Shown here: piece by piece, positions 37,096 through 48,326 of the stretch
How the letters are laid out: every line of letters starts with the position of its first letter
How positions within the stretch are numbered: the first letter of the stretch is position 1
IMG/VR virus record: IMGVR_UViG_3300035696_000002
Source of the DNA: a virus
Lineage: Duplodnaviria > Heunggongvirae > Uroviricota > Caudoviricetes
DNA: 64,000 nt
Strand: one strand, 5' to 3'
Program-made: the position numbers and the translations under genes
Notes under the pieces: generated by a model
What the model saw: the letters and a program-made list of their open reading frames with translations, nothing else
Told to the model about the DNA's origin: nothing
The model's database searches: none

Positions 37096-39727
37096 TGGAC
37101 AACGAAGGATTCACTTCGATGGAGTTTGAAAAACTCAAAGCGATGCTGGAACGGTCTGGCATTCCGTTCACGGTGGAAGACACCGGAGAAAGGCTCGAAT
37201 ACTTCAAGGTGCCGGGCGGGAAAATTATTCATCTTGAAGTCGGCACCCACGACCATGACAAGCTGGTGGGCTACCTCGGCTTCATGGCCGAGTTCATGTT
37301 CGACGCGAACGGCTCGCTAGTCAAAGCGGGAATTTGGGAATGAGCGTAAAACTTTTAAGGGAGCCATTCACCGCCACAAAGTTTGATGGCACCAAATACT
37401 TTACTGTCATCGCCACAGGCAATGGCATGATTGTTCAGAATCTTCGCCGCAAGAAACCAGCTATAGAACTCGCACGACTTATGAACGAGGCCTTCAAACT
37501 CGGGTATGATTCTGGTTTCAAAAACGGACGGGCGAAACGAATCGTCGCCTTCGACTTTTAAGGAACAAAGATGAGTGAATGCACACACTTTCAGAAAATA
37601 CACCTTTGCAGTAACGGCCCCTCCAGCGGAGGCTCCTACTTCTGGTGCCCTAACTGCGGATGTCTGGGGCGTGAACGATCCATAGTGCGGCAACGACAAC
37701 TGTTCGTTGAACTGTTGTGGCGGAGTCCCGACGCAGAGTTTGTCGATCCTGATTTCCCGGAACGCTTGGCCCTGACCTAATGCGAAAAACTGGTGCCCGT
37801 AAAACACGCCGGAGCGAATTGACGAAGCAGCAACTCGTCAAATTGGCCATGAACAAAGTGCGTGGGTTGAACAAGAAGGAACTGCGGAAATTTGTGTTCG
37901 ACACGAATTGCTGCCCCCACGAGAACACGCACCCCTGCGGGATGGACACGGTCTGTAGCGACTGCGGAGATTGGGTATGATCCGCATCAACGTCGCTCTG
38001 AAGCCCTGCAAATGGTGCACGGACGAGAAGAGAATGTGGTTCAAGCACGTAGGCTACTATGCTGGTATCTACGGGGCAGAAACGATCATCCCCAAATGGC
38101 TCAAATGTCTTTGGTGCGGGAGACTTGTTGATTACACCGAAATCTGGGAGCGAGCCCATGCCAGCAACGCCTGAACAACTCGCCGCACTCGCCGCCATCA
38201 TCCGGGCAAAAGAAAATCGCGTGTGTCCGCATGGGCCGCTCATCGTCGAAGGTATGAAACTCCGGTGTGAGCCGCACTACGATGAGTCCGCCTACCACGC
38301 GGAAGACCCGGCACTCGACACCCAATATCAGCGGGAAGAGGACGAGTACGCGGCCCGCGAGGTTCTTGGGCGGCTGGTTCTCTACCTCTACCCGACAGTA
38401 CCGGAACAGTGGCAGGATCGGGACTTCGTTAAGACTTGGCAGGCGTACCTGATGTTCTTGTACAAGCCAATCGCTAAGCATTACAACGTGGACGCGGACG
38501 CTCTGTTGAGCAGCTTCAATCGCCATTACCTGCCGTCAATCATTATGCGGGAGTATGGCGAGGCAGAGGCAGTTAAATTCATGATGGGGGCAAAACAATG
38601 ACGCCGTTTTTATGGAAACTCGCCGACATCTTGGTGTACCCAGTGGTGATCGGCGGCGTGATGTGGATCATGTGGAAAGTTCGCTGGAGCAAATTCTAAA
38701 TGCCGAAGTTCGTCATCGAAGCTGGGGCCATCGAGCTTGTCCGGGGCCGTCCCATCGAGGTCGAGATCGAAACGGGCGGTGCCATTACCGCACTGACGAA
38801 GCTGGGCCTCACTGTTTGGGAGCGGGACAAGTGGGATGCGACAGTAGCAAAGATCAAGGAAACTATGGATTTTGATTTCCCTGAGCCTATCGTAACGAAC
38901 CTCACGGTGCCCGGCTACATGCTGCTCTTGGATTTCTACAACGCCGTCGCCTACCTGACCCTCCACCACGACGTACTGGGCGGCGAAGTCGGCGACAAGG
39001 TACTCGGCGAGACGGCGGTGGTTTATCCATCAAAACTTGGCCCGCTGCTTGAGGCCGTGGACAAAGAATGGTGGAAGAGGAAGCCATGATTAAACTACCC
39101 AGCGATGAATTCATTTTCAAGGTTCGGGCCATGACCGACGAAGAGTTGATCGCCGCCTACAAGGAAGCCCGCACTTGCATGGACAACCTTGAAGTGGAAC
39201 GGATGAACTGCTGGAACCGCATGATGGAGATTCACAAATTGCAGGACGACATCGGCGGCGAGATGCAGGCTTTGGCCGTCAATCTTCACTACGTCCGCAA
39301 GCTGAAGTTGGAACGATGAGAAACCTAATGAGCGAATTTGACAGGTTGAAAGCACAGAAAGAGCAGTTCGAGCAGCGGGAGGTTTGCCGGATCATCAATG
39401 TCCTCCGGCAGGCCTTCGTGAAGATCGCAAACGGGGCCGAGGCCATGAAGTTCGAGGACGCCGTCCACGCGGTCTACCCATTCGCCACAGACTGGATTCC
39501 GCCGAGTCAGGAACCGCCGACACAGGGATAACCATGGGACTACGACCAATGCCGATGATGCCGCTGCCCAACTCCCCGAAGGAGCACTGGGAAAAGTACT
39601 ACGCCGCTATGCGGCGGATGCAGTACGTCGCCGGGCTACAGATGCGAGTTCTCGCTATCGGGATCGGGCTCAGCATCGGCCTTGCAATCGCCCTGATCGC
39701 CATCGCAAAATAATTTTTCGCCAGTAG

Positions 39728-39756
39728 TTGACATTTTCCGAAATACCCAGTACTAT
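39728..39756 (+). promoter_or_regulatory. Sigma70-type promoter of second tRNA region
   Basis: TTGACA, 17 nt spacer, TACTAT. Confidence 0.85.
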
Positions 39757-39793
39757 ACAGAGAGTCAGCAAACTGCTGGCCCGAGACACTACC

Positions 39794-39892
39794 ATGACCT
39801 CAATGAAACATAATACGGTCGCACGAAAGCAGTGGCGGAATCGTCGCCACGACGGCGTTGGTCTGTCCTCGGACACGGAGTTTGGGAAGTAA
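39794..39892 (+). CDS. Attenuator leader peptide MTSMKHNTVARKQWRNRRHDGVGLSSDTEFGK
   Basis: Short ORF between promoter and terminator; K/H/N/R/Q/W codons match downstream tRNAs; alternative start 39803. Confidence 0.8.
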   Translation: MTSMKHNTVARKQWRNRRHDGVGLSSDTEFGK

Positions 39893-39924
39893 ACAAAGCA
39901 ACCAAACCCAAAACGAGAGCAAAC

Positions 39925-39958
39925 AGACCCGCCAAAAACTGGCGGGTTTTGCATTTTT
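39925..39958 (+). terminator. Attenuator terminator upstream of tRNA-Trp
   Basis: ACCCGCCA-AAAAC-TGGCGGGT followed by TTTGCATTTTT. Confidence 0.85.
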
Positions 39959-39971
39959 AGTGGGAAAATTC

Positions 39972-40045
39972 GGGGGTGTCGGTTAATGGCAAACCAGCGG
40001 TCTCCAAAACCGTGACTGGGGGTTCAAGTCCCTCCACCCCCGCCA
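39972..40045 (+). tRNA. tRNA-Trp(CCA)
   Basis: GCGGT-CTCCAAA-ACCGT, GCCA end. Confidence 0.93.
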
Positions 40046-40064
40046 AAAGATTGAGGCGGAGATT

Positions 40065-40692
40065 ATGGAATTGAAGATTGAACAGCAGACGCGAGGCACC
40101 CGCATCCTGCGGGGGGAGTCAGCTACCCGGAGGCGACTTCATCTCATCTAGTCTCGCAACAGCAGCGACGGCAGCCGGGTACGAGGAAATCGTACTCCCG
40201 TCGCTAGAGCCAGCCGCTCTCTACGCTGAAAAGGCTGGCCCTGAGATTCTGGGACAGATGTACTGCTTCCCGGACAAGAAAGGCAGGCAGTTGTGCCTGC
40301 GACCGGAAGGAACGGCGACCTGTCAGATACTCGCCGACACGGTAATGAAAATGGAGCGAGACGTGAAGCTCTGGTATCTGACGACCTGTTGGCGTTACGA
40401 ACGACCACAGGCTGGGCGGTACCGGGAGTTCACACAGTTCGGGGTGGAAATCCTGAACCCACGCGGCCCCGTCCGGGATGAGTTAGTGGCTTTGGCCGAA
40501 AGCATGGTGCGGCAGTTCACGGATCAGTATGAAGTGAACGCGGCAGTCAAGCGGGGGCTGGCCTACTACGTCGAGGATGGCTTCGAAATCAGTTGCCCGG
40601 CACTGGGGGCTCAGAAGCAAGTCTGCGGCGGCGGTTCATACAAGCAAGGCTGCGGTTTCGCAATTGGGGTAGATCGCATGATGCTTGTGTGA
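40065..40692 (+). CDS. Histidyl-tRNA synthetase catalytic-core-only protein, split by +1 frameshift near 40137-40142
   Basis: RGTR N-terminal motif in frame of ATG 40065; LRPEGT, WRYERPQAGRYREFTQFGVE, RGLAYY, GGGSY, GFAIGVDR in the +1 frame; no anticodon-binding domain. Confidence 0.85.
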
Positions 40693-40697
40693 CGTAT

Positions 40698-40774
40698 GGT
40701 GGGCGTAGCTTAATGGTTAAAGCATCTGGCTGTGAACCAGAAGGTTGCGGGTTCGATTCCCGTCGCCCACCCCA
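40698..40774 (+). tRNA. tRNA-His(GTG)
   Basis: G-1:C73, loop CTGTGAA, CCA. Confidence 0.95.
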
Positions 40775-40785
40775 AAATTTTATAT

Positions 40786-40863
40786 GGTGTCATTGGTGTA
40801 GGGGCTTATCACGGCGGACTGTGAATCCGCTATTCGTGGGTTCGAATCCCACATGACACCCCA
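40786..40863 (+). tRNA. tRNA-His(GTG), second divergent copy
   Basis: G-1:C73, GCGGA-CTGTGAA-TCCGC, CCA. Confidence 0.92.
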
Positions 40864-41022
40864 AGATTGGAAGTGCACCATGTGGTACGACGACAACGTG
40901 TGCGAAGTTTGCGGGTTGGAAAAGCCGGACGTTCGTGAACGCGAGTGCGGTTACTCGATGGAACTGACTGGCGAAGTGCACTTGGAAGTTATTTGCGATG
41001 ACTGCGAACACCAGCATTGCAT

Positions 41023-41099
41023 GGACGTGTAGCTCAGTTGGATAGAGCGTTCCCCTCCGAAGGGAAAGGTCGCAGGTTCGACTCCTGCCATGTCCACCA
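41023..41099 (+). tRNA. tRNA-Arg(CCG)
   Basis: TTCCC-CTCCGAA-GGGAA, ACCA end. Confidence 0.95.
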
Positions 41100-41347
41100 G
41101 TTTATGAGTAGAACATTTACAATTCACGATACGGAACTCGCTACGTTCGAGAAGTTCAAGGCAGAGCACGAACCAAAGTGCGTCTACCACGGCGACACGA
41201 TGGCGAATCCGGGGCACATTCGGTACTTCACGCCGACATCGGCGTACACGATTATGTTCAAGCCGACAGGCGTCGGTGACGGCGTGCATGTGAAGTGCCT
41301 TTGCGGTGAAGAGGTAGACATCACCGATTACGAATTGTGGTAGTTTT

Positions 41348-41424
41348 GCTCGTGTAGCTCAACAGGAGAGAGCGTACCCCTGCGAAGGGTAAGATTTGTG
41401 GTTCGAGTCCACTCACGAGTACCA
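41348..41424 (+). tRNA. tRNA-Arg(GCG)
   Basis: TACCC-CTGCGAA-GGGTA, ACCA end. Confidence 0.88.
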
Positions 41425-41435
41425 TTTTAGATTTT

Positions 41436-41513
41436 GCCCGGTTACCCATTGGACATGGGGCCTCGTCTTCGAAACGAGGACGCTCAAGGGTTCGAATCCC
41501 TTACCGGGTTCCA
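41436..41513 (+). tRNA. tRNA-Arg(TCG)
   Basis: CTCGT-CTTCGAA-ACGAG, TCCA end. Confidence 0.88.
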
Positions 41514-41589
41514 GATTTTGGTCTGACACACGCTGGTGTCAGCGTAAGCGAGGGTCGCCGTAATCAGTCGCCCTTCGGCCATGAAGTTT

Positions 41590-41666
41590 GTTTCCGTAGC
41601 TCAACTGGATAGAGTACGTGGCTACGAACCACGGGGTTGGGGGTTCGAATCCCTCCGGGAACACCA
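41590..41666 (+). tRNA. tRNA-Arg(ACG)
   Basis: CGTGG-CTACGAA-CCACG, ACCA end. Confidence 0.95.
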
Positions 41667-41679
41667 GATGTTGTAACAT

Positions 41680-41766
41680 TGGGATGTAGAGCGTAATTGG
41701 TAGCGTGCACGGCTGTTAACCGTGTGTCGAAAGACCTTGTAGGTTCGAGCCCTACCGTCCCAGCCA
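41680..41766 (+). tRNA. tRNA-Asn(GTT) with extra variable hairpin
   Basis: CACGG-CTGTTAA-CCGTG, GTC-GAAA-GAC variable arm, GCCA end. Confidence 0.85.
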
Positions 41767-41783
41767 AATTCATAGGAGGCGTT

Positions 41784-42038
41784 ATAGGCAAACAGAAGGA
41801 AGTGAAATTCAGCGTCAGGGTCAGCGACCATGACTACGGTTACAGAGTCGAGCAGGTGAAGCGATTTCTGGCCAAGAAGCATAGTGTTTTGGCTGTGGTG
41901 CAGTTTAAGGGGCGTGAGATCACACATCCCGAACTTGGGCAAGAGTTGTTGGCCCGGCTGCTAACCGATCTGGGGAGAAACGGAACTCCCGTCCTGAAGG
42001 GACGATCACTTCAAGTTCTGATTACGCCTAAGAGTTGA
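41784..42038 (+). CDS. infC: Translation initiation factor IF3 C-terminal domain, probable ATA start
   Basis: KEVKFSVRVSDHD...RFL...VQFKGREITHPELG; AGGAGG followed by in-frame ATA. Confidence 0.8.
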   Translation: MGKQKEVKFSVRVSDHDYGYRVEQVKRFLAKKHSVLAVVQFKGREITHPELGQELLARLLTDLGRNGTPVLKGRSLQVLITPKS

Positions 42039-42115
42039 GCGGTGCCGTAGAAGGCAACCCTGTTCAATAGGAGGGCAGAGACCAAAGCGGTACTGCTCAA
42101 AAAGTTTTGATGTAT

Positions 42116-42203
42116 TGGGAAGTAGGAAAATTGGCAACCCCAGAGGATTCTGAATCCTCCGTGCTTAAGCACACTGAAGGTTCGAATCCTTCCTTCCCAG
42201 CCA
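42116..42203 (+). tRNA. tRNA-Gln(CTG) with long variable arm
   Basis: GAGGA-TTCTGAA-TCCTC, GTGC-TTAA-GCAC arm, U1-A72, GCCA end. Confidence 0.85.
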
Positions 42204-42216
42204 AGTTTAGGAGTCG

Positions 42217-42286
42217 TGGACTGTAGCTTAGTTGGCAGAGCACCCCCGGCAAGGGGGAGACGCGGGTTCGATTCCCGCCAGCCCGA
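42217..42286 (+). pseudogene. tRNA-like element with non-canonical anticodon arm
   Basis: Good D and T arms, CCCCC-GGCAA-GGGGG hairpin, no CCA. Confidence 0.6.
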
Positions 42287-42369
42287 ATACGAACGACTCT
42301 TAGTGCTGAGAGTGGACGAGGATTTGTCCTGATCGTATCGGGACGTAGAATTGTCCGCTCTCGTTGCAT

Positions 42370-42444
42370 TCCTCGGTAGCTCAGGGGTAGAGCAGGTGGC
42401 TGTTAACCACCCTGTCGGAGGTTCGAATCCTTCCCGAGGAGCCA
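42370..42444 (+). tRNA. tRNA-Asn(GTT)
   Basis: GGTGG-CTGTTAA-CCACC, GCCA end. Confidence 0.95.
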
Positions 42445-42560
42445 AGTTAGGTTAGAAGGTCGCGGACACAGGAACCGCCTCTCGTGTACTGTACGCTTCG
42501 GCTATCGACAGAGGACGGGTGTAGCTCAGGGAGAGCATCTAACCTGAAAGTTTGAAGCTG

Positions 42561-42628
42561 GGGGGCGTAGCTCAATGGTAGAGCAGCCCACACAAGGGAA
42601 GATGCGGGTTCGAGTCCCGCCGCCCCCA
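42561..42628 (+). pseudogene. tRNA-like element with truncated anticodon arm
   Basis: GGGGGCG/CGCCCCC acceptor, canonical D and T arms, CCC-ACACAA-GGG arm, no CCA. Confidence 0.6.
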
Positions 42629-42716
42629 TAAGGCTTCATTAAAGGGCCAGAGATAGACCGGGACGCCGGGAACGTCGTGAAATCCTCATAGGCCCCACGT
42701 GATTAGAAGTAAAGCT

Positions 42717-42793
42717 GGGTGTGTGGTGTCAACGGCTAACATATCTCCCTCTTAAGGAGCAAGATGCTGGTTCAAATCCAGTCACACCCACCA
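42717..42793 (+). tRNA. tRNA-Lys(CTT)
   Basis: Loop CTCTTAA, ACCA end. Confidence 0.88.
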
Positions 42794-42814
42794 AGTTTGT
42801 GTTAGAGTGAAGTC

Positions 42815-43627
42815 ATGTTGCATCACGTAATTCAGAAGGACATGTTTCACGAGTTCGGGTTTCATACTCTGATTCGTGCGATGGAAGAAAACGAAGTCCC
42901 GTATTGCGTGGTGAAGATCATCCCGTTCAGTCATGAACTGACGTGGGAGTCAGGTGTGCCGCTGCCGGAGAGCACGGTGCCGACAATGATCTGGGGCATG
43001 ACCTGTGTTGAGGAAGTCGCCGGAGTAAGACAATGGACGCCCGGCGTGTTCAAGAACGAGAATTTCGATTTGCGTGTGATCGGCGAGAGGTACGGCGAGA
43101 ACATGCTGAATGCCGACGCGAAGTTTTGCAGGCTGGGGGATATTCCAGCGTTTGAGGGATCGGCATTCATTCGCCCGGTACACGACACAAAGTCGTTTAC
43201 CGGAGCCCTTATCAATGGCGAAGACCTGCGAACTTGGCAGGATCAGCTAATGCAGTTGAAGGGTGAGTTCACGACGTTGAGTCTGGACACCCCGGTGCTG
43301 TACGCCAGCCCGAAGAAGATTGATACTGAGTGTCGCTTCTTTGTGGTGGATGGAAAAGTTATCACTGGTAGTTCGTATCGGGTTAACGGTAGAGTATTAT
43401 ACAAGAGGGTGAACGCCGACAACCCGATGTGCATCCCCCTGAGGGAGTTTGCACAGAGAATGGTTGACCAGTGGCAACCTGTTGAAGCATTCGTGATCGA
43501 CATCGGACGAGTCGGCCAAGAATGCAAAGTGATCGAGATCAACTGCTTGAATTCGTCGGGGTTTTACGACTCGGACATGGCGGCGGTGGTCAGGGCGATC
43601 ACGAATTTACCAAGTTTGGATCGGTAG
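42815..43627 (+). CDS. ATP-grasp domain protein (DUF4343/R2K-like)
   Basis: FIRPVHDTKSFTG, ECRFFVVDGKVI, FVIDIG, IEINCLNSSGFY. Confidence 0.8.
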   Translation: MLHHVIQKDMFHEFGFHTLIRAMEENEVPYCVVKIIPFSHELTWESGVPLPESTVPTMIWGMTCVEEVAGVRQWTPGVFKNENFDLRVIGERYGENMLNADAKFCRLGDIPAFEGSAFIRPVHDTKSFTGALINGEDLRTWQDQLMQLKGEFTTLSLDTPVLYASPKKIDTECRFFVVDGKVITGSSYRVNGRVLYKRVNADNPMCIPLREFAQRMVDQWQPVEAFVIDIGRVGQECKVIEINCLNSSGFYDSDMAAVVRAITNLPSLDR

Positions 43628-43693
43628 CTCAATTGGCAGAGCAGGTGACTCTTAATCATCAGGTTGGGGGTTCGATTCCCTCCCGGTTCACCA
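43618..43693 (+). tRNA. tRNA-Lys(CTT)
   Basis: GGTGA-CTCTTAA-TCATC, ACCA end; overlaps stop of upstream CDS. Confidence 0.93.
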
Positions 43694-44486
43694 ATTTTAC
43701 GGGTCGCTTAGAAGACGGAAGCAGGCGGCGGTACCGCCGTTGCGGGTTCAATGTCCGCCCCGTGAATTCGGGTCGAAGGCTAAATGCCTGATTGTTCCCG
43801 TGGACACCCAAACGAAAGAGGCGTGACCAAGCCGGAGAGTCGGCACCAGTTTTATGCGAAAGACGTGTCCCAGTTGTCTCGGTGATGACGCAGCAGAGCG
43901 AGAAGGCCGGAATTTCGACCCTCTCTATGGCACCGTAGAGATTTACTGCACGTACTGTGGCTCGTTTGTGGACATGATCTGGCGATGGCAGACAGACGAT
44001 TCGGTCTGGCAAAAGTTTAAGGAACAAGCGAGGGGATATGTGGGGTGCTCCTGAGGACGTGCCGGGTCGTTGTAACGCCCGGCTTTTTGTTGGGGACGAT
44101 TATGGCGACAACACCGCGACGTTCATGTGCGAGTTAGACCCCGGCCACGAAGGTAAGCACCGGGAAGTCTTCCGCGATGGCACAGCGGTCATAGAGTGGG
44201 AGACCGATGAGAGGCAGACCGGGAACGATCCTGACCTGTAAGGATTTTGCGGATTTGGGCATCGAATGTTGCGAGGCCTGCCACGACGTAGAGAATCTTG
44301 ACCCGCTTTTACGGATCAGGGTCGATGGGCAGGAAGCCCTAGTTTGTTGTGAAATAATGGCATTTTTCTACCCTGACGAAGCAGATCAGGCGGATTTTTG
44401 GCAAGCTCAAATGGACGAGGCCGAGGCGTTAAACCCACCAAAGCCAGAGGACTTTGAAAACCCTGAATAGAAGGGGAATTGATTTT

Positions 44487-45035
44487 ATGGCTGACACTCT
44501 AGTACTTGACATGTCGGGAACCCCAATCGGGTTCGTTTCTTGGCAGCGGGCTGTGAAGCTCTACTGGGAAGACCGTGCCGTCATCGTGGATGATGACGCA
44601 AACCGGATTCTCCACTCGCCGTCCTTCGAAATGAACATGCCGACCGTCATCCGTGCTAAGAACTGGGTGCAGCGTCGGAAGAAGGAACGTGTCCCGTTCT
44701 CGCGTCGCAACATCGCGATCCGCGACAACAGCCGTTGCCAGTACTGCAATAAGCTGTTGCAGACGGCCCAGTACACGATGGATCACGTCATCCCTCGTTG
44801 CAAGGGCGGAACGTCTACGTGGACGAACCTCGTGCTTGCTTGCATCCGTTGCAACAAGTACAAGTCTGGTTGCACGCCGGAGGAGGCAGGTATGCATCTG
44901 TTGAAGCAGCCTATCGAGCCGAAGGCAGATGACCCGAAGTACAACTTCAAGCTTCGGATCAAGAAGATGCACCCGACGTGGAAGCCGTGGGTCGATGGCG
45001 GCTGGCTGTACTGGAACATCGAACTGGACAAGTAG
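44487..45035 (+). CDS. HNH endonuclease
   Basis: RRNIAIRD..CQYC..TMDHVIPRCKGG..WTNLVLACIRCN..K. Confidence 0.92.
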   Translation: MADTLVLDMSGTPIGFVSWQRAVKLYWEDRAVIVDDDANRILHSPSFEMNMPTVIRAKNWVQRRKKERVPFSRRNIAIRDNSRCQYCNKLLQTAQYTMDHVIPRCKGGTSTWTNLVLACIRCNKYKSGCTPEEAGMHLLKQPIEPKADDPKYNFKLRIKKMHPTWKPWVDGGWLYWNIELDK

Positions 45036-45712
45036 GAGAAGTCATGAGCCTAGTGCTAAGCGGCGATTTTTGCGGCTGTGAGAAGCATCATGGCTCATGG
45101 CACTCCAACTGCCCCGAGTGTGACACGGAAGAGGGCAAGTCCTGCTGGAAGTTTTTGCACGTGCAACTACCGTGCGGTAAGTGCGATAATTGCATTCGCA
45201 ACGGGAACAAGCCGTATGATTGGCGTAAGGAAATGCTGGGCGGGGAGTTTACCGAAAGTTTCATCGCTTGAAGGAGCCTTATGGACGTTGACAGTATTCG
45301 CAAGTTGGGCATTAGCAGCAGCCTCGGAGACAAGGAAACAGTAGCTCTCTTCGAGAAGTTGATCGCATACGGCTGGATTGACGGGGCCGGGCGGTCGTTA
45401 CCGTGGACGGCTCATCTTCGCCGCAAGGATCGTGCAGCGGCAGCGGGGCGTGAGTAATGCCGTACAACTACCCCGGCTTACTTCGCAGCGAAGACACCAA
45501 CGACCACGATTGGCGGATTGTGTGTGATGTGCTGGATGCAGCCATCGCTCACTGGAAAAAGCGGAGCGAAACCGAGAGTGATTTGTTCGGTTCGGCCTAC
45601 GGTCATCACTACGTAGGGGCTCTCACAGAAGTTCAGATCGCGTTACTCGGCGGCGAAAGCGACAACGTCGATGAGAAGGCGATTGAGGCCATGATTAAGG
45701 CCGCAAAAGTTT

Positions 45713-45800
45713 GATCCCGTAGTCTAGTTGGACAAGGCAGCGGTTTCCTAAACCGCAGAGCGAAAGCTCATCGGGGGTTCGAATCCCTCCGGGATCACCA
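45713..45800 (+). tRNA. tRNA-Arg(CCT) with extra variable hairpin
   Basis: GCGGT-TTCCTAA-ACCGC, GAGC-GAAA-GCTC arm, ACCA end. Confidence 0.9.
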
Positions 45801-46100
45801 TTTTGATTGCAGGAGCACGCGATGTTTAAGACGATGCAGTTGGTTTATCGGAACATGGTTTGGAACCGCCCGAAGATCGGGCTGTGGGGTTTGATCGTAG
45901 TCGCGTTAGTGGCCACGACAGACCTGTACTTCAGCATTTTGCGGATCGGTGGGGGCCGGGTAACTGCTGGCGTATTCGCCGCCTTCGCACTGAGCTTCTG
46001 GTTCGTCGGGTTGCCAATGGTTCTGACACTGATCGACCTGAAGATGAAGCCCCAGAGGATGGAAAAAATCTGGGCACAGATGCACAAGCAGTAAACGTTT

Positions 46101-46174
46101 TGCCCCTTCGTTCAACGGCAGGACACTTGGCTCTGAACCAAGGTATGGTGGTTCGAATCCATCAGGGGCAGCCA
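46101..46174 (+). tRNA. tRNA-Gln(CTG)
   Basis: CTTGG-CTCTGAA-CCAAG, U1-A72, GCCA end. Confidence 0.93.
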
Positions 46175-46661
46175 AGTTTTGGGCTTCAGAATCCATTTGT
46201 ATATGGAACTGAAACCGTATAAGATCGTTGCAATGCCGTTCGCACAATCTGACGCGACCGCCGAATACACGGAGTATGCGATCAGCGAAGATCAGGCCTT
46301 GCGAAATTTTGAACGACGTTACCCGGCGTACCGGGTTAAAGAAGTAAGGGAAGCGTGAGCAAGTACGACGGAACAATTTGCAACGACTGTAACACCGAGA
46401 TTTATCAGGACAAGTGCAACTGTGATTATTACCGGGCACACCCTGAGGCAACCTTACCCGAGAATGAAACATCTAGGGAGATAGGTCGCAGGATTCGAGA
46501 AGACTTTGGCGATGAGATCGCCGGAGCATTGAAATAGATTATGACCATGCTAAACTACATGCCGCTGATTGCCGCAACCGAGATCATGGTTCTCGTTGTG
46601 CCCCGCCTCGTCTTCGCGATTGCCGCGACTCCTCTCAGACGAAAACGCTAACCCAATCCTT

Positions 46662-46743
46662 GGGGGCGTAGACTCGTGGTCTTCTAAACCATAAGAGCTT
46701 AACCGGACTGAAAATGTGGGTTCGAATCCCACCGCTCCCTCCA
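46662..46743 (+). tRNA. Atypical D-arm-less tRNA-Arg(TCT)-like RNA
   Basis: Acceptor and T arm intact, GTGGT-CTTCTAA-ACCAT, only 7 nt between acceptor and anticodon stems, TCCA end. Confidence 0.6.
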
Positions 46744-46760
46744 TACCTTTGCGTACCTTT

Positions 46761-46835
46761 GCCTCCGTAGCTTAACGGTAAAGCTACCGCCTTTTAAGCG
46801 GATAGATGGGGGTTCGATTCCCTCCGGGGGTACCA
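46761..46835 (+). tRNA. tRNA-Lys(TTT)
   Basis: Loop CTTTTAA, ACCA end. Confidence 0.9.
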
Positions 46836-46837
46836 AT

Positions 46838-46917
46838 GGGGGTGTAACTCAATCGGGTCAAGAGTACCCGGCTTTTAACCGGGAAGTTGCAGGCAACCCA
46901 ATCTGCCGCCCCCACCA
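46838..46917 (+). tRNA. tRNA-Lys(TTT) with aberrant T loop
   Basis: CCCGG-CTTTTAA-CCGGG; T loop CAACCCAA instead of TTCRANY; ACCA end. Confidence 0.75.
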
Positions 46918-47133
46918 TTCCTTCCTATGCTATAATCACCACGTGAAATACAAAGACTTTTTCATCGACGAGGGCAAATACTTCATCGACGCCGAGAAGG
47001 TGACTCGCGAAGTGTTCAACGAACGCCGATTGAAAGAGTGCTGGCACCACTGGGTGCCGATAGGTGATTCCGACAAAGACGGCGAATGTCGTTACTGTGA
47101 ACTCAAAGTTGTCGGGGGCAAAAAAGTAGTCGA

Positions 47134-47655
47134 ATGATTACCTGCGTGACAGCACCGAGTCGAAGCGGCACCAGCTTGACCATGCAAATGCTACAGGCAG
47201 CGGATGTGCCGCTGTGGTGGGACGCTCTCCCTAATCGCACAGCGTGGAATCCACGCGGACACTTCGAGATCAACACGCGAAAGAACAACGACTGGACGAT
47301 CCTTCTGCCGCTCTGTGAAGGCAGGGCCATCAAGGTGATGCCGTTTGATCTGTACCGCCTGACGCCGGATCACGAATACCGTTTCATCACAATCCTCCGC
47401 AATCCAACAGCCGTCGATGCGTCGCAGCAAGCTGCGGTGGAATTTCGTGGTGCAAAGATGTCTGACGCGGATAAGACCAAGGAATGGCAGCGGTATACGC
47501 TGGACTTTATCAAGGACTACCCACACGTCATCGTCAATTTCGACGACCTGTTCAACGGCAAGGCCCAGCAGAGCATCGGCGAGTTCATGGGCTTCGACGA
47601 CCTCCAAATCGCGAAGATGAACGATTGCGTAGACCCGGAACTCAGGCATTTCTAA
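47134..47655 (+). CDS. Sulfotransferase-like P-loop protein
   Basis: N-terminal PSRSGTSLTMQML, NPRGHFE, ILRNP. Confidence 0.7.
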   Translation: MITCVTAPSRSGTSLTMQMLQAADVPLWWDALPNRTAWNPRGHFEINTRKNNDWTILLPLCEGRAIKVMPFDLYRLTPDHEYRFITILRNPTAVDASQQAAVEFRGAKMSDADKTKEWQRYTLDFIKDYPHVIVNFDDLFNGKAQQSIGEFMGFDDLQIAKMNDCVDPELRHF

Positions 47656-47738
47656 TACCAACCGGAAAAAGATAAAACAAGAAATAGTTTCTGTGGTACG
47701 TTTGTTTCGTGGACACATTCCACAGACAAAGGGTATAT

Positions 47739-48326
47739 ATGTCAAAAGCTGCTGTAAAGGAACAAGCAATTGAGGTAAAACGGTTGGATATTCGTTCTAT
47801 CCGGCTGACGCTCGAAGGCGATTCACCGCTCATTTCCCACAAGTGGGCGGAAAAGGCAAAAAAGGAAATGCTCGACAAGCAGATGAAGAAGGCCAAGACT
47901 GCTAAGGAAGCAAAAGACCCCGAGAAGGACTACAAGGATAGCCTGTATGAGTATCCGGGCGGCGGTTTTGGTTTCCCAACGATTGGCGTCAAGGCTGCTG
48001 CGGTCACCGCTGCTGCTCAATGCGACATGTTCAAAACTGACGCACGTGCAGCATTCCACATCGACGGCGATCTGGTTAAGATCGACGGCGAACCGGAGAT
48101 GCGGGAAGACATGGTGCGAGTTGGCATGGGCACTGCGGACATCCGCTATCGCGGCATGTTCCCCAAGTGGAGGACAACCTTCACGCTCAAGTACAACGCA
48201 TCCGTGTTGTCTGCTGAGCAGATCGTGAACTTGTTCAACGCTGCGGGATTCGGCGTTGGCATCGGTGAGTGGCGTCCCCAGAAGAACGGGTCGTTCGGTC
48301 GCTTTCACGTTGCAAACGAAGCGTAA
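47739..48326 (+). CDS. Stand-alone RAMP/Cas7-like RNA-binding protein
   Basis: N-terminal IRLTLEGDSPLISH strand, FPTIGVKAA helix, IRYRGMFPKW, C-terminal Gly-rich loop GFGVGIGEWRPQKNGSFGRFHV. Confidence 0.75.
   Translation: MSKAAVKEQAIEVKRLDIRSIRLTLEGDSPLISHKWAEKAKKEMLDKQMKKAKTAKEAKDPEKDYKDSLYEYPGGGFGFPTIGVKAAAVTAAAQCDMFKTDARAAFHIDGDLVKIDGEPEMREDMVRVGMGTADIRYRGMFPKWRTTFTLKYNASVLSAEQIVNLFNAAGFGVGIGEWRPQKNGSFGRFHVANEA

Follow-up and report, generated by a model that had tools for sequence, protein, structure and literature searches.

A probable ribosome-mediated attenuator upstream of a phage tRNA gene block, with counterparts in other phages

The element described here lies in a 64,000-nucleotide stretch of DNA (the window), corresponding to bases 47749 to 111748 of the 463,033-bp IMG/VR virus record IMGVR_UViG_3300035696_000002 (Caudoviricetes). 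It consists of a promoter, a short open reading frame (ORF) and an intrinsic terminator upstream of an array of transfer RNA (tRNA) genes. ARAGORN predicted 68 tRNA genes and a transfer-messenger RNA (tmRNA) gene in the whole genome, distributed over six separate regions in which the tRNAs are sorted by amino acid, and the array studied is the second of these regions (39972-46911). Coordinates refer to the window unless given as genome positions. The leader cassette and the first gene behind it are made up of the following features, where minimum free energy is abbreviated MFE and folding free energy dG.

39728..39756, + strand: promoter with -35 TTGACA, a 17-nt spacer and -10 TACTAT (consensus scan; kept in orthologues)
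39794..39892, + strand: leader ORF, 32 codons plus TAA (first ATG and TAA stop kept in 12 orthologues)
39806..39850, + strand: sensor codons 5 to 19, with 12/15 encoding Lys, His, Asn, Arg, Gln or Trp (sequence; orthologue residue distribution)
39832..39850, + strand: hairpin P2, a 7-bp stem with a 5-nt loop, made of sensor codons (folds; columns 84-102 of the orthologue alignment)
39854..39933, + strand: antiterminator, a long imperfect hairpin (MFE structure of the transcript cut before the 3' arm of the terminator)
39925..39959, + strand: intrinsic terminator, a GC-rich hairpin of 9-10 bp (39925-39949) plus T-run (dG -16.8; kept in orthologues)
39972..40045, + strand: tRNA-Trp (CCA), the first gene past the terminator (ARAGORN, Rfam)

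The promoter resembles the sigma-70 type, and the leader ORF lies between it and the terminator, upstream of tRNA-Trp. The tRNA gene begins 12 nt past the T-run, too close for a separate promoter to fit in between. The initial annotation of this DNA had quoted a run of leader codons (39803-39850) between a promoter and a terminator; all three are present in the sequence. It had also started the leader at the second Met. The ORF opens three codons 5' of the quoted codons and continues for 13 more after them, and the first ATG is conserved in 12 orthologues while the second is not. Twelve of the 15 codons after the second Met do encode Lys, His, Asn, Arg, Gln or Trp, as had been claimed, using all four CGN codons, AAA and AAG, CAT and CAC, CAG, and TGG, with Asn solely as AAT. 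A 15-residue stretch with at least 12 of these residues is found in just 3 of the 3,240 small ATG-initiated ORFs in the six frames of the 463-kb genome. Cognate triplets occupy 13/31 positions in the frame of this leader versus 6/30 and 9/30 in the other two frames.

The list of downstream tRNAs was borne out by ARAGORN and Rfam: Trp, His (two), Arg CCG/GCG/TCG/ACG/CCT/TCT, Asn (two), Gln-CTG (two), Lys-CTT (two) and Lys-TTT (two), with Arg-TCT and the second Lys-TTT as weak, deviant Rfam matches. The composition of the leader, a short ORF with cognate regulatory codons, tracks the amino-acid set of these tRNAs. The claim that the two sets are exactly the same overlooked two aberrant tRNA-like genes in the array. 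The gene at 42217-42286 is called Cys-GCA and has a deviant, short anticodon loop without U33; that at 42561-42628 has normal acceptor, D and T arms and a shortened anticodon stem-loop with no anticodon.

This arrangement is repeated across the genome. In each of six paralogous cassettes, a tRNA block is preceded by a promoter, a short TAA-terminated ORF and a hairpin. Five carry a canonical terminator, with 25-35 nt between the stop codon and the terminator stem, while the sixth (L3b) has a hairpin without a T-run and a more divergent promoter. Four of the six leader ORFs start with ATG AAC. A spacer/-10 motif is common to five leader cassettes and the tmRNA promoter, and the 463-kb genome holds three further loose matches to it, which have neither a -35 hexamer nor a tRNA context. 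Whole, untrimmed leader ORFs were scored against each array, and the true leader-array pairing was the best of 720 permutations by amino acid as well as by decodable codon. The match is frame specific: over 20 cassettes, cognate triplets stood at 55% in the ORF frame versus 23% and 21% in the others. The six leaders pooled use 53 distinct codons for cognate residues, where 45.9 +/- 2.3 are expected from draws on genome codon usage (P 0.0006), and this spread over synonymous codons fits a sampling of isoacceptors. In the sixth cassette (genome 345883-346044), a second mini-ORF upstream overlaps the leader start in an ATGA junction. The tmRNA gene (genome 243216, minus strand) shares the promoter family of the leader cassettes and has no leader ORF. 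All six leader ORFs stop with TAA, never TAG; the genome encodes three CUA-anticodon (amber-suppressor) tRNAs together with its own tmRNA (e.g., genome 238747-239065 and 242851-243196).

In relatives the tRNAs are grouped in other ways, and the leaders change to match. Phages of 578 kb and 516 kb have a Ser/Tyr/His/Cys-rich leader and an Arg/Leu/Lys/Trp-rich leader, each standing before precisely the tRNAs for these amino acids. In the closest viral contig a Thr/Ile/His/Lys/Asn/Cys leader precedes matching tRNAs, an AT-rich contig shows the same with an Asn/Ile/Tyr/Cys/Glu leader, and metagenome contigs supplied more matched examples. For a quantitative comparison guarded against circularity, candidates were chosen by structure while ignoring composition: each had to have an ORF of 10-70 codons whose stop codon precedes a terminator by 15-45 nt, and a tRNA no more than 1 kb away. 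Scored against their own arrays, the 16 candidates gave a summed z of 41.4, whereas permuted pairings gave 0.5 +/- 6.8 and none of 20,000 permutations reached 41.4. The initial annotation had set leader-array covariation as its test beforehand, and the outcome agrees with it within the genome, where the own pairing beats 719 others, and across phages. DNA searches of the phage collection, near and distant, returned tRNA-level matches and one protein-level match, which led to Tunturi_5, a cultured 308-kb phage of Tunturiibacter (host phylum Acidobacteriota) that carries three such cassettes, of which one is annotated as a hypothetical protein; the Tunturi_5 paper makes no mention of leaders. 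The grouping of tRNAs takes other forms as well: one home array (genome 304344-308157) reads almost only GNN codons, i.e., is sorted by first codon base, and arrays in the relatives L004, L012 and L016 read mostly CNN, ANN or UNN codons.

Orthologues of the cassette itself were retrieved through the histidyl-tRNA synthetase (HisRS)-like gene that follows tRNA-Trp. With its protein as query, 22 viral and 80 metagenomic loci were obtained, and a degenerate DNA pattern for the sensor peptide found no match in viral contigs. In 14 of the closest contigs (80-84% identity), tRNA-Trp immediately precedes the HisRS-like gene, and a His/Arg tRNA series follows in all but one of them (L058) where the contig extends. 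Twelve of the 14 contigs, all twelve metagenomic, contain a complete orthologous leader, in which promoter, first ATG, TAA and terminator are all kept. Two blocks made of cognate residues alone are conserved (RKHQ and QRNNRW, or near variants). Outside these blocks the peptide is poorly conserved, whereas the RNA structure is conserved. Across the orthologues, cognate residues account for 179/320 positions upstream of the antiterminator versus 11/141 in the part that encodes it, which is the distribution that an attenuation mechanism requires.

Three RNA structures are relevant to such a mechanism. Hairpin P2 is formed by the sensor codons, and its pairing is kept in the orthologue alignment via changes on both sides; the P2 stem bases of the home phage differ from those of the orthologues, yet spell cognate residues alone. 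Its position makes it a candidate RNA polymerase pause hairpin. The antiterminator is the MFE structure of the truncated transcript, in which 39854-66 pairs with 39923-33 and encloses two nested helices, as the initial annotation had proposed. Its 5' strand consists of the last 13 ORF codons, the stop codon (39890-39892) sits in the apex, and its 3' strand overlaps the 5' arm of the terminator. The antiterminator domain (39860-39929) folds with a dG of -22.8 and a z-score of -3.8. Folded singly, each orthologue forms a hairpin of 20-24 bp (dG -20 to -27.6, z -2.9 to -4.9), and in 12/12 the TAA lies in the apical loop at a near-fixed offset. The RNAalifold consensus picks the outer helix, GGUCUG with CAGACC. 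Since the MAFFT/RNAalifold analysis of this domain aligned the outer helix alone, the inner helices, which differ in sequence, were judged by per-sequence folding z-scores (-1.2 to -3.4 for the inner part alone). The two-tier design of antiterminator and terminator recurs in the other home cassettes. In silico, then, the antiterminator and the terminator draw on common bases, and a ribosome that completes the ORF would be in a position to block the antiterminator. Folds with a masked ribosome leave the antiterminator intact for stalls at codons up to about 39837; a ribosome stalled on the final two or three sensor codons starts to cover its 5' end.

The anatomy of the cassette, the frame-specific codon match, the conserved and mutually exclusive structures and the leader-array covariation make a ribosome-mediated (leader-peptide) transcription attenuator of the trp/his type, controlling a phage tRNA block, the best explanation of the locus, and a likely one. 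On this explanation, transcription would begin at the 39728-39756 promoter and a ribosome would translate the 32-codon leader. If the Lys, His, Asn, Arg, Gln and Trp codons (39806-39850) were read at normal speed, the ribosome would cross the last 13 codons and reach the apical TAA, where it would block the antiterminator; the terminator (39925-39949) would then fold and transcription would stop 12 nt before tRNA-Trp. Slow decoding of any sensor codon, caused by scarcity of a charged tRNA (e.g., through depletion or cleavage of host tRNAs), would make the ribosome lag, so that the antiterminator (39854-39933) would fold and sequester the 5' arm of the terminator. RNA polymerase would then read tRNA-Trp, the HisRS-like gene and the His, Arg, Asn, Gln and Lys tRNAs, at least as far as a second, internal terminator at 44061-44083. 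The supply of precisely the tRNAs encoded in this block would thereby be subject to negative feedback. Read-through is probably the default state, because an untranslated leader forms nothing that competes with the antiterminator; termination would need a ribosome that keeps up with the polymerase. The sensed quantity would be decoding speed, for which tRNA scarcity and amino-acid scarcity are indistinguishable from sequence; the output, more tRNA, is useful solely under tRNA scarcity. The proposal of a multi-input sensor stands, though with one or two copies per codon a summing of delays is more likely than a logical OR. The observation in the initial annotation is thus confirmed, and its interpretation as an attenuator is supported.

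Several results weigh against this explanation. In equilibrium folds of the full transcript the terminator was retained whichever ribosome position was masked, so the switch has to be kinetic, and the informative folds are the truncated, co-transcriptional ones. The truncated transcript without a ribosome is predicted to form the antiterminator, unlike in trp, where an untranslated leader terminates. With a masked ribosome at the stop codon the outer helix still pairs in silico, so that the argument for its exclusion by the ribosome is a steric one. Upstream pairing of the 5' arm of the terminator yields an energy gain above that of shuffled controls in just 3/5 home cassettes (P 0.01 for this cassette; Fisher combined P 0.005), and a duplex test limited to the 7-8 nt terminator arm itself was too weak to be of use. 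On the side of translation, no clear Shine-Dalgarno sequence precedes the leader ORF, and its 5' untranslated region of about 31 nt holds a hairpin in the folds. Each sensor codon is present one or two times in the leader, which may therefore respond poorly when a single tRNA is lost. Codon diversity in this leader alone is not significant (P 0.17), and its AAA codon is read solely by Lys-UUU tRNAs, which sit past the internal terminator. Translation of the leader, regulated read-through, the direction of the switch and its physiological trigger are all inferred from sequence.

Some of these points would suit a general sensor of translation status, in which any slowing or absence of the ribosome turns the array on and the cognate codons add little specificity. 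The folding of the ribosome-free truncated transcript into the antiterminator, the single or double occurrence of cognate codons and the missing Shine-Dalgarno sequence are all what such a sensor would show. It leaves unexplained, however, why composition tracks the arrays in six home cassettes and across phages, why cognate codons are confined to the sensor part and why synonymous codons are evenly spread, and we regard it as unlikely. A different way to use the codons would be direct binding of tRNAs by the leader RNA through codon-anticodon pairing, in the style of a T-box with multiple specifiers and with no ribosome. Triplets complementary to the anticodons do occur in the loops of predicted hairpins, and in the orthologues one conserved sensor block lies in a hairpin loop. 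The cognate triplets nevertheless share a single frame running from a conserved ATG to a conserved TAA, the fixed position of the stop codon in the antiterminator apex matters to a ribosome only, and no T-box (RF00230), Rfam leader or other cis-regulatory family was matched by cmscan over 38000-48000 at E up to 1, where, apart from tRNAs, there were just a few chance matches to unrelated families, all far below threshold. Direct binding therefore seems very improbable.

The unit of promoter, ORF and terminator is also complete in itself, and could be an independent small gene for a basic 32-amino-acid peptide or an RNA of about 190 nt, with the tRNAs expressed in some other way; trans-acting RNAs derived from attenuators are reported from other bacteria (PMC6614838). 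We give this equally little credence. The T-run is just 12 nt from tRNA-Trp, the promoter family is essentially confined to tRNA and tmRNA units, the RNA structure is conserved in place of the peptide beyond the cognate blocks, and leader composition follows the array. Half of the 12 cognate codons fall inside hairpin P2 (39832-39850), which raises the thought that a GC-rich hairpin merely happens to encode Arg, Trp and His. Against such a coincidence stand the rarity of the composition among the small ORFs of the genome, the fact that P2 of the orthologues spells cognate residues alone with different stem bases, and the repetition of the pattern in five other home cassettes and many phages, and its probability appears negligible.

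The extent of the unit under control of the attenuator depends on the remainder of the array, which contains the following features.

40078..40692, + strand: truncated HisRS-like gene, 204 amino acids (Pfam tRNA-synt_His, 7.8e-21; syntenic in relatives)
40699..43693, + strand: tRNAs His (two), Arg CCG/GCG/TCG/ACG, Asn (two), Gln-CTG and Lys-CTT (two), plus the two aberrant tRNA-like genes (ARAGORN, Rfam)
within 41697-42038, + strand: ORF with an IF3 C-domain, among the array tRNAs
42815-43627, + strand: R2K-clade ATP-grasp ORF (RimK-like), resembling a Tunturi_5 gene
44061..44091, + strand: strong internal intrinsic terminator, 8-bp stem (6 GC pairs) at 44061-44083, then a tail reading TTTTTGTT
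44454-45035: HNH endonuclease gene, inside the array
45713..46911, + strand: distal tRNAs Arg-CCT, Gln-CTG, Arg-TCT, Lys-TTT and a deviant second Lys-TTT (ARAGORN, Rfam)

The initial annotation had related the whole array to one leader. This is tenable up to 44061-44083, where it overlooked the strong internal terminator, which comes after a small ORF within the array. Because of this terminator, the segment controlled by the leader most likely extends from about 39763 to 44090. It would then probably exclude both Lys-TTT, one Gln-CTG, Arg-CCT and Arg-TCT, and control of these distal tRNAs (45713-46911) by the leader is uncertain. The absence of AGR codons from the leader fits the location of Arg-CCT and Arg-TCT past the internal terminator. 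No separate leader was found for the distal tRNAs, and other promoter-like matches within the array were at chance level in the consensus scan.

Several genes of the array are unusual in their own right. Long variable arms are present in Gln-CUG (42116-42203), Arg-CCU (45713-45800) and one Asn tRNA (41680-41766). The Arg-UCU tRNA (46662-46740) has no D-arm and a variable arm of about 20 nt, and a Lys-UUU tRNA (46840-46911) has a deviant T-loop. An extended -10-like element (TGCTATAAT) lies at 46925-46945, just past the last tRNA and before the next ORF. The HisRS-like protein of about 200 amino acids, a fragment of the catalytic core, adjoins tRNA-His genes in more than 100 huge-phage contigs (L004-L126), and in contig L007 its gene is preceded by a leader with three consecutive His codons.

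The leaders thrL, ilvL, trpL, hisL, leuL and pheL are leader-peptide attenuators of enterobacterial amino-acid operons. They likewise combine a promoter-proximal short ORF and clustered regulatory codons with a terminator before the genes, an antiterminator overlapping its 5' arm and, possibly, a pause hairpin within the ORF. Multivalence is shared with thrL (Thr and Ile) and ilvL (Ile, Leu and Val), each of which samples several amino acids. The enterobacterial leaders govern biosynthetic enzymes, whereas the phage cassette stands before tRNA genes and a few translation-related ORFs. It further differs in being phage encoded, in occurring in six copies per genome and in placing the stop codon in the apex of the antiterminator. 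A phage leader may sample as many as six amino acids, each through one or two codons, and synonymous codons are spread over isoacceptors. The 1:2 pairing that competes with the antiterminator in trp has no equivalent in the phage cassette, whose untranslated leader is therefore predicted to read through. The pheM leader of pheST is an attenuator controlling an aminoacyl-tRNA synthetase. It resembles the phage cassette in being ribosome mediated and in feeding back on the translation apparatus, and a synthetase-like gene is present here too (HisRS-like, 40078-40692); pheM, however, responds to one amino acid and controls a protein gene, while the phage products are mainly tRNAs. T-box riboswitches also sense tRNA status and choose between terminator and antiterminator upstream of translation-related genes, but bind uncharged tRNA directly, with neither ribosome nor ORF, in contrast to the frame-specific signal within an ORF seen in the phage. 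An attenuator-like leader of the Escherichia coli tRNA-Phe genes pheU/pheV was considered as a precedent and rejected, as the 100-200 nt upstream of these genes in K-12 MG1655 contain no Phe-rich ORF. Literature searches returned no account of tRNA-gene attenuation or of the regulation of phage tRNA expression.

The locus bears on the timing and dosage of tRNAs made by phages, and on the reason why the tRNA genes of large phages form arrays. If the attenuator operates as proposed, it would provide a self-correcting rule by which a tRNA set is made only when its codons are read slowly, and would bring stable RNA genes, a new class of target, under a textbook mechanism, while explaining the sorting of tRNAs into blocks. 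It would also tie the carriage of tRNAs by phages, in a testable way, to the depletion or cleavage of host tRNAs. The cultured pair of Tunturi_5 and Tunturiibacter psychrotolerans, with three cassettes, makes the idea accessible at the bench, and such cassettes could also be put to use as small natural devices that report how fast chosen codons are decoded. A wider possibility, which we put forward tentatively, is that huge phages have a modular, demand-driven tRNA supply, with blocks each switched by a codon-sampling leader, leaders that co-evolve with reshuffled block content and, as trigger, the loss of host tRNAs through turnover or anticodon-nuclease defences. Under such a modular supply the Lys/Arg/His/Asn/Gln/Trp block would cover classic nuclease targets, and the grouping of tRNA genes would be a consequence of regulation.

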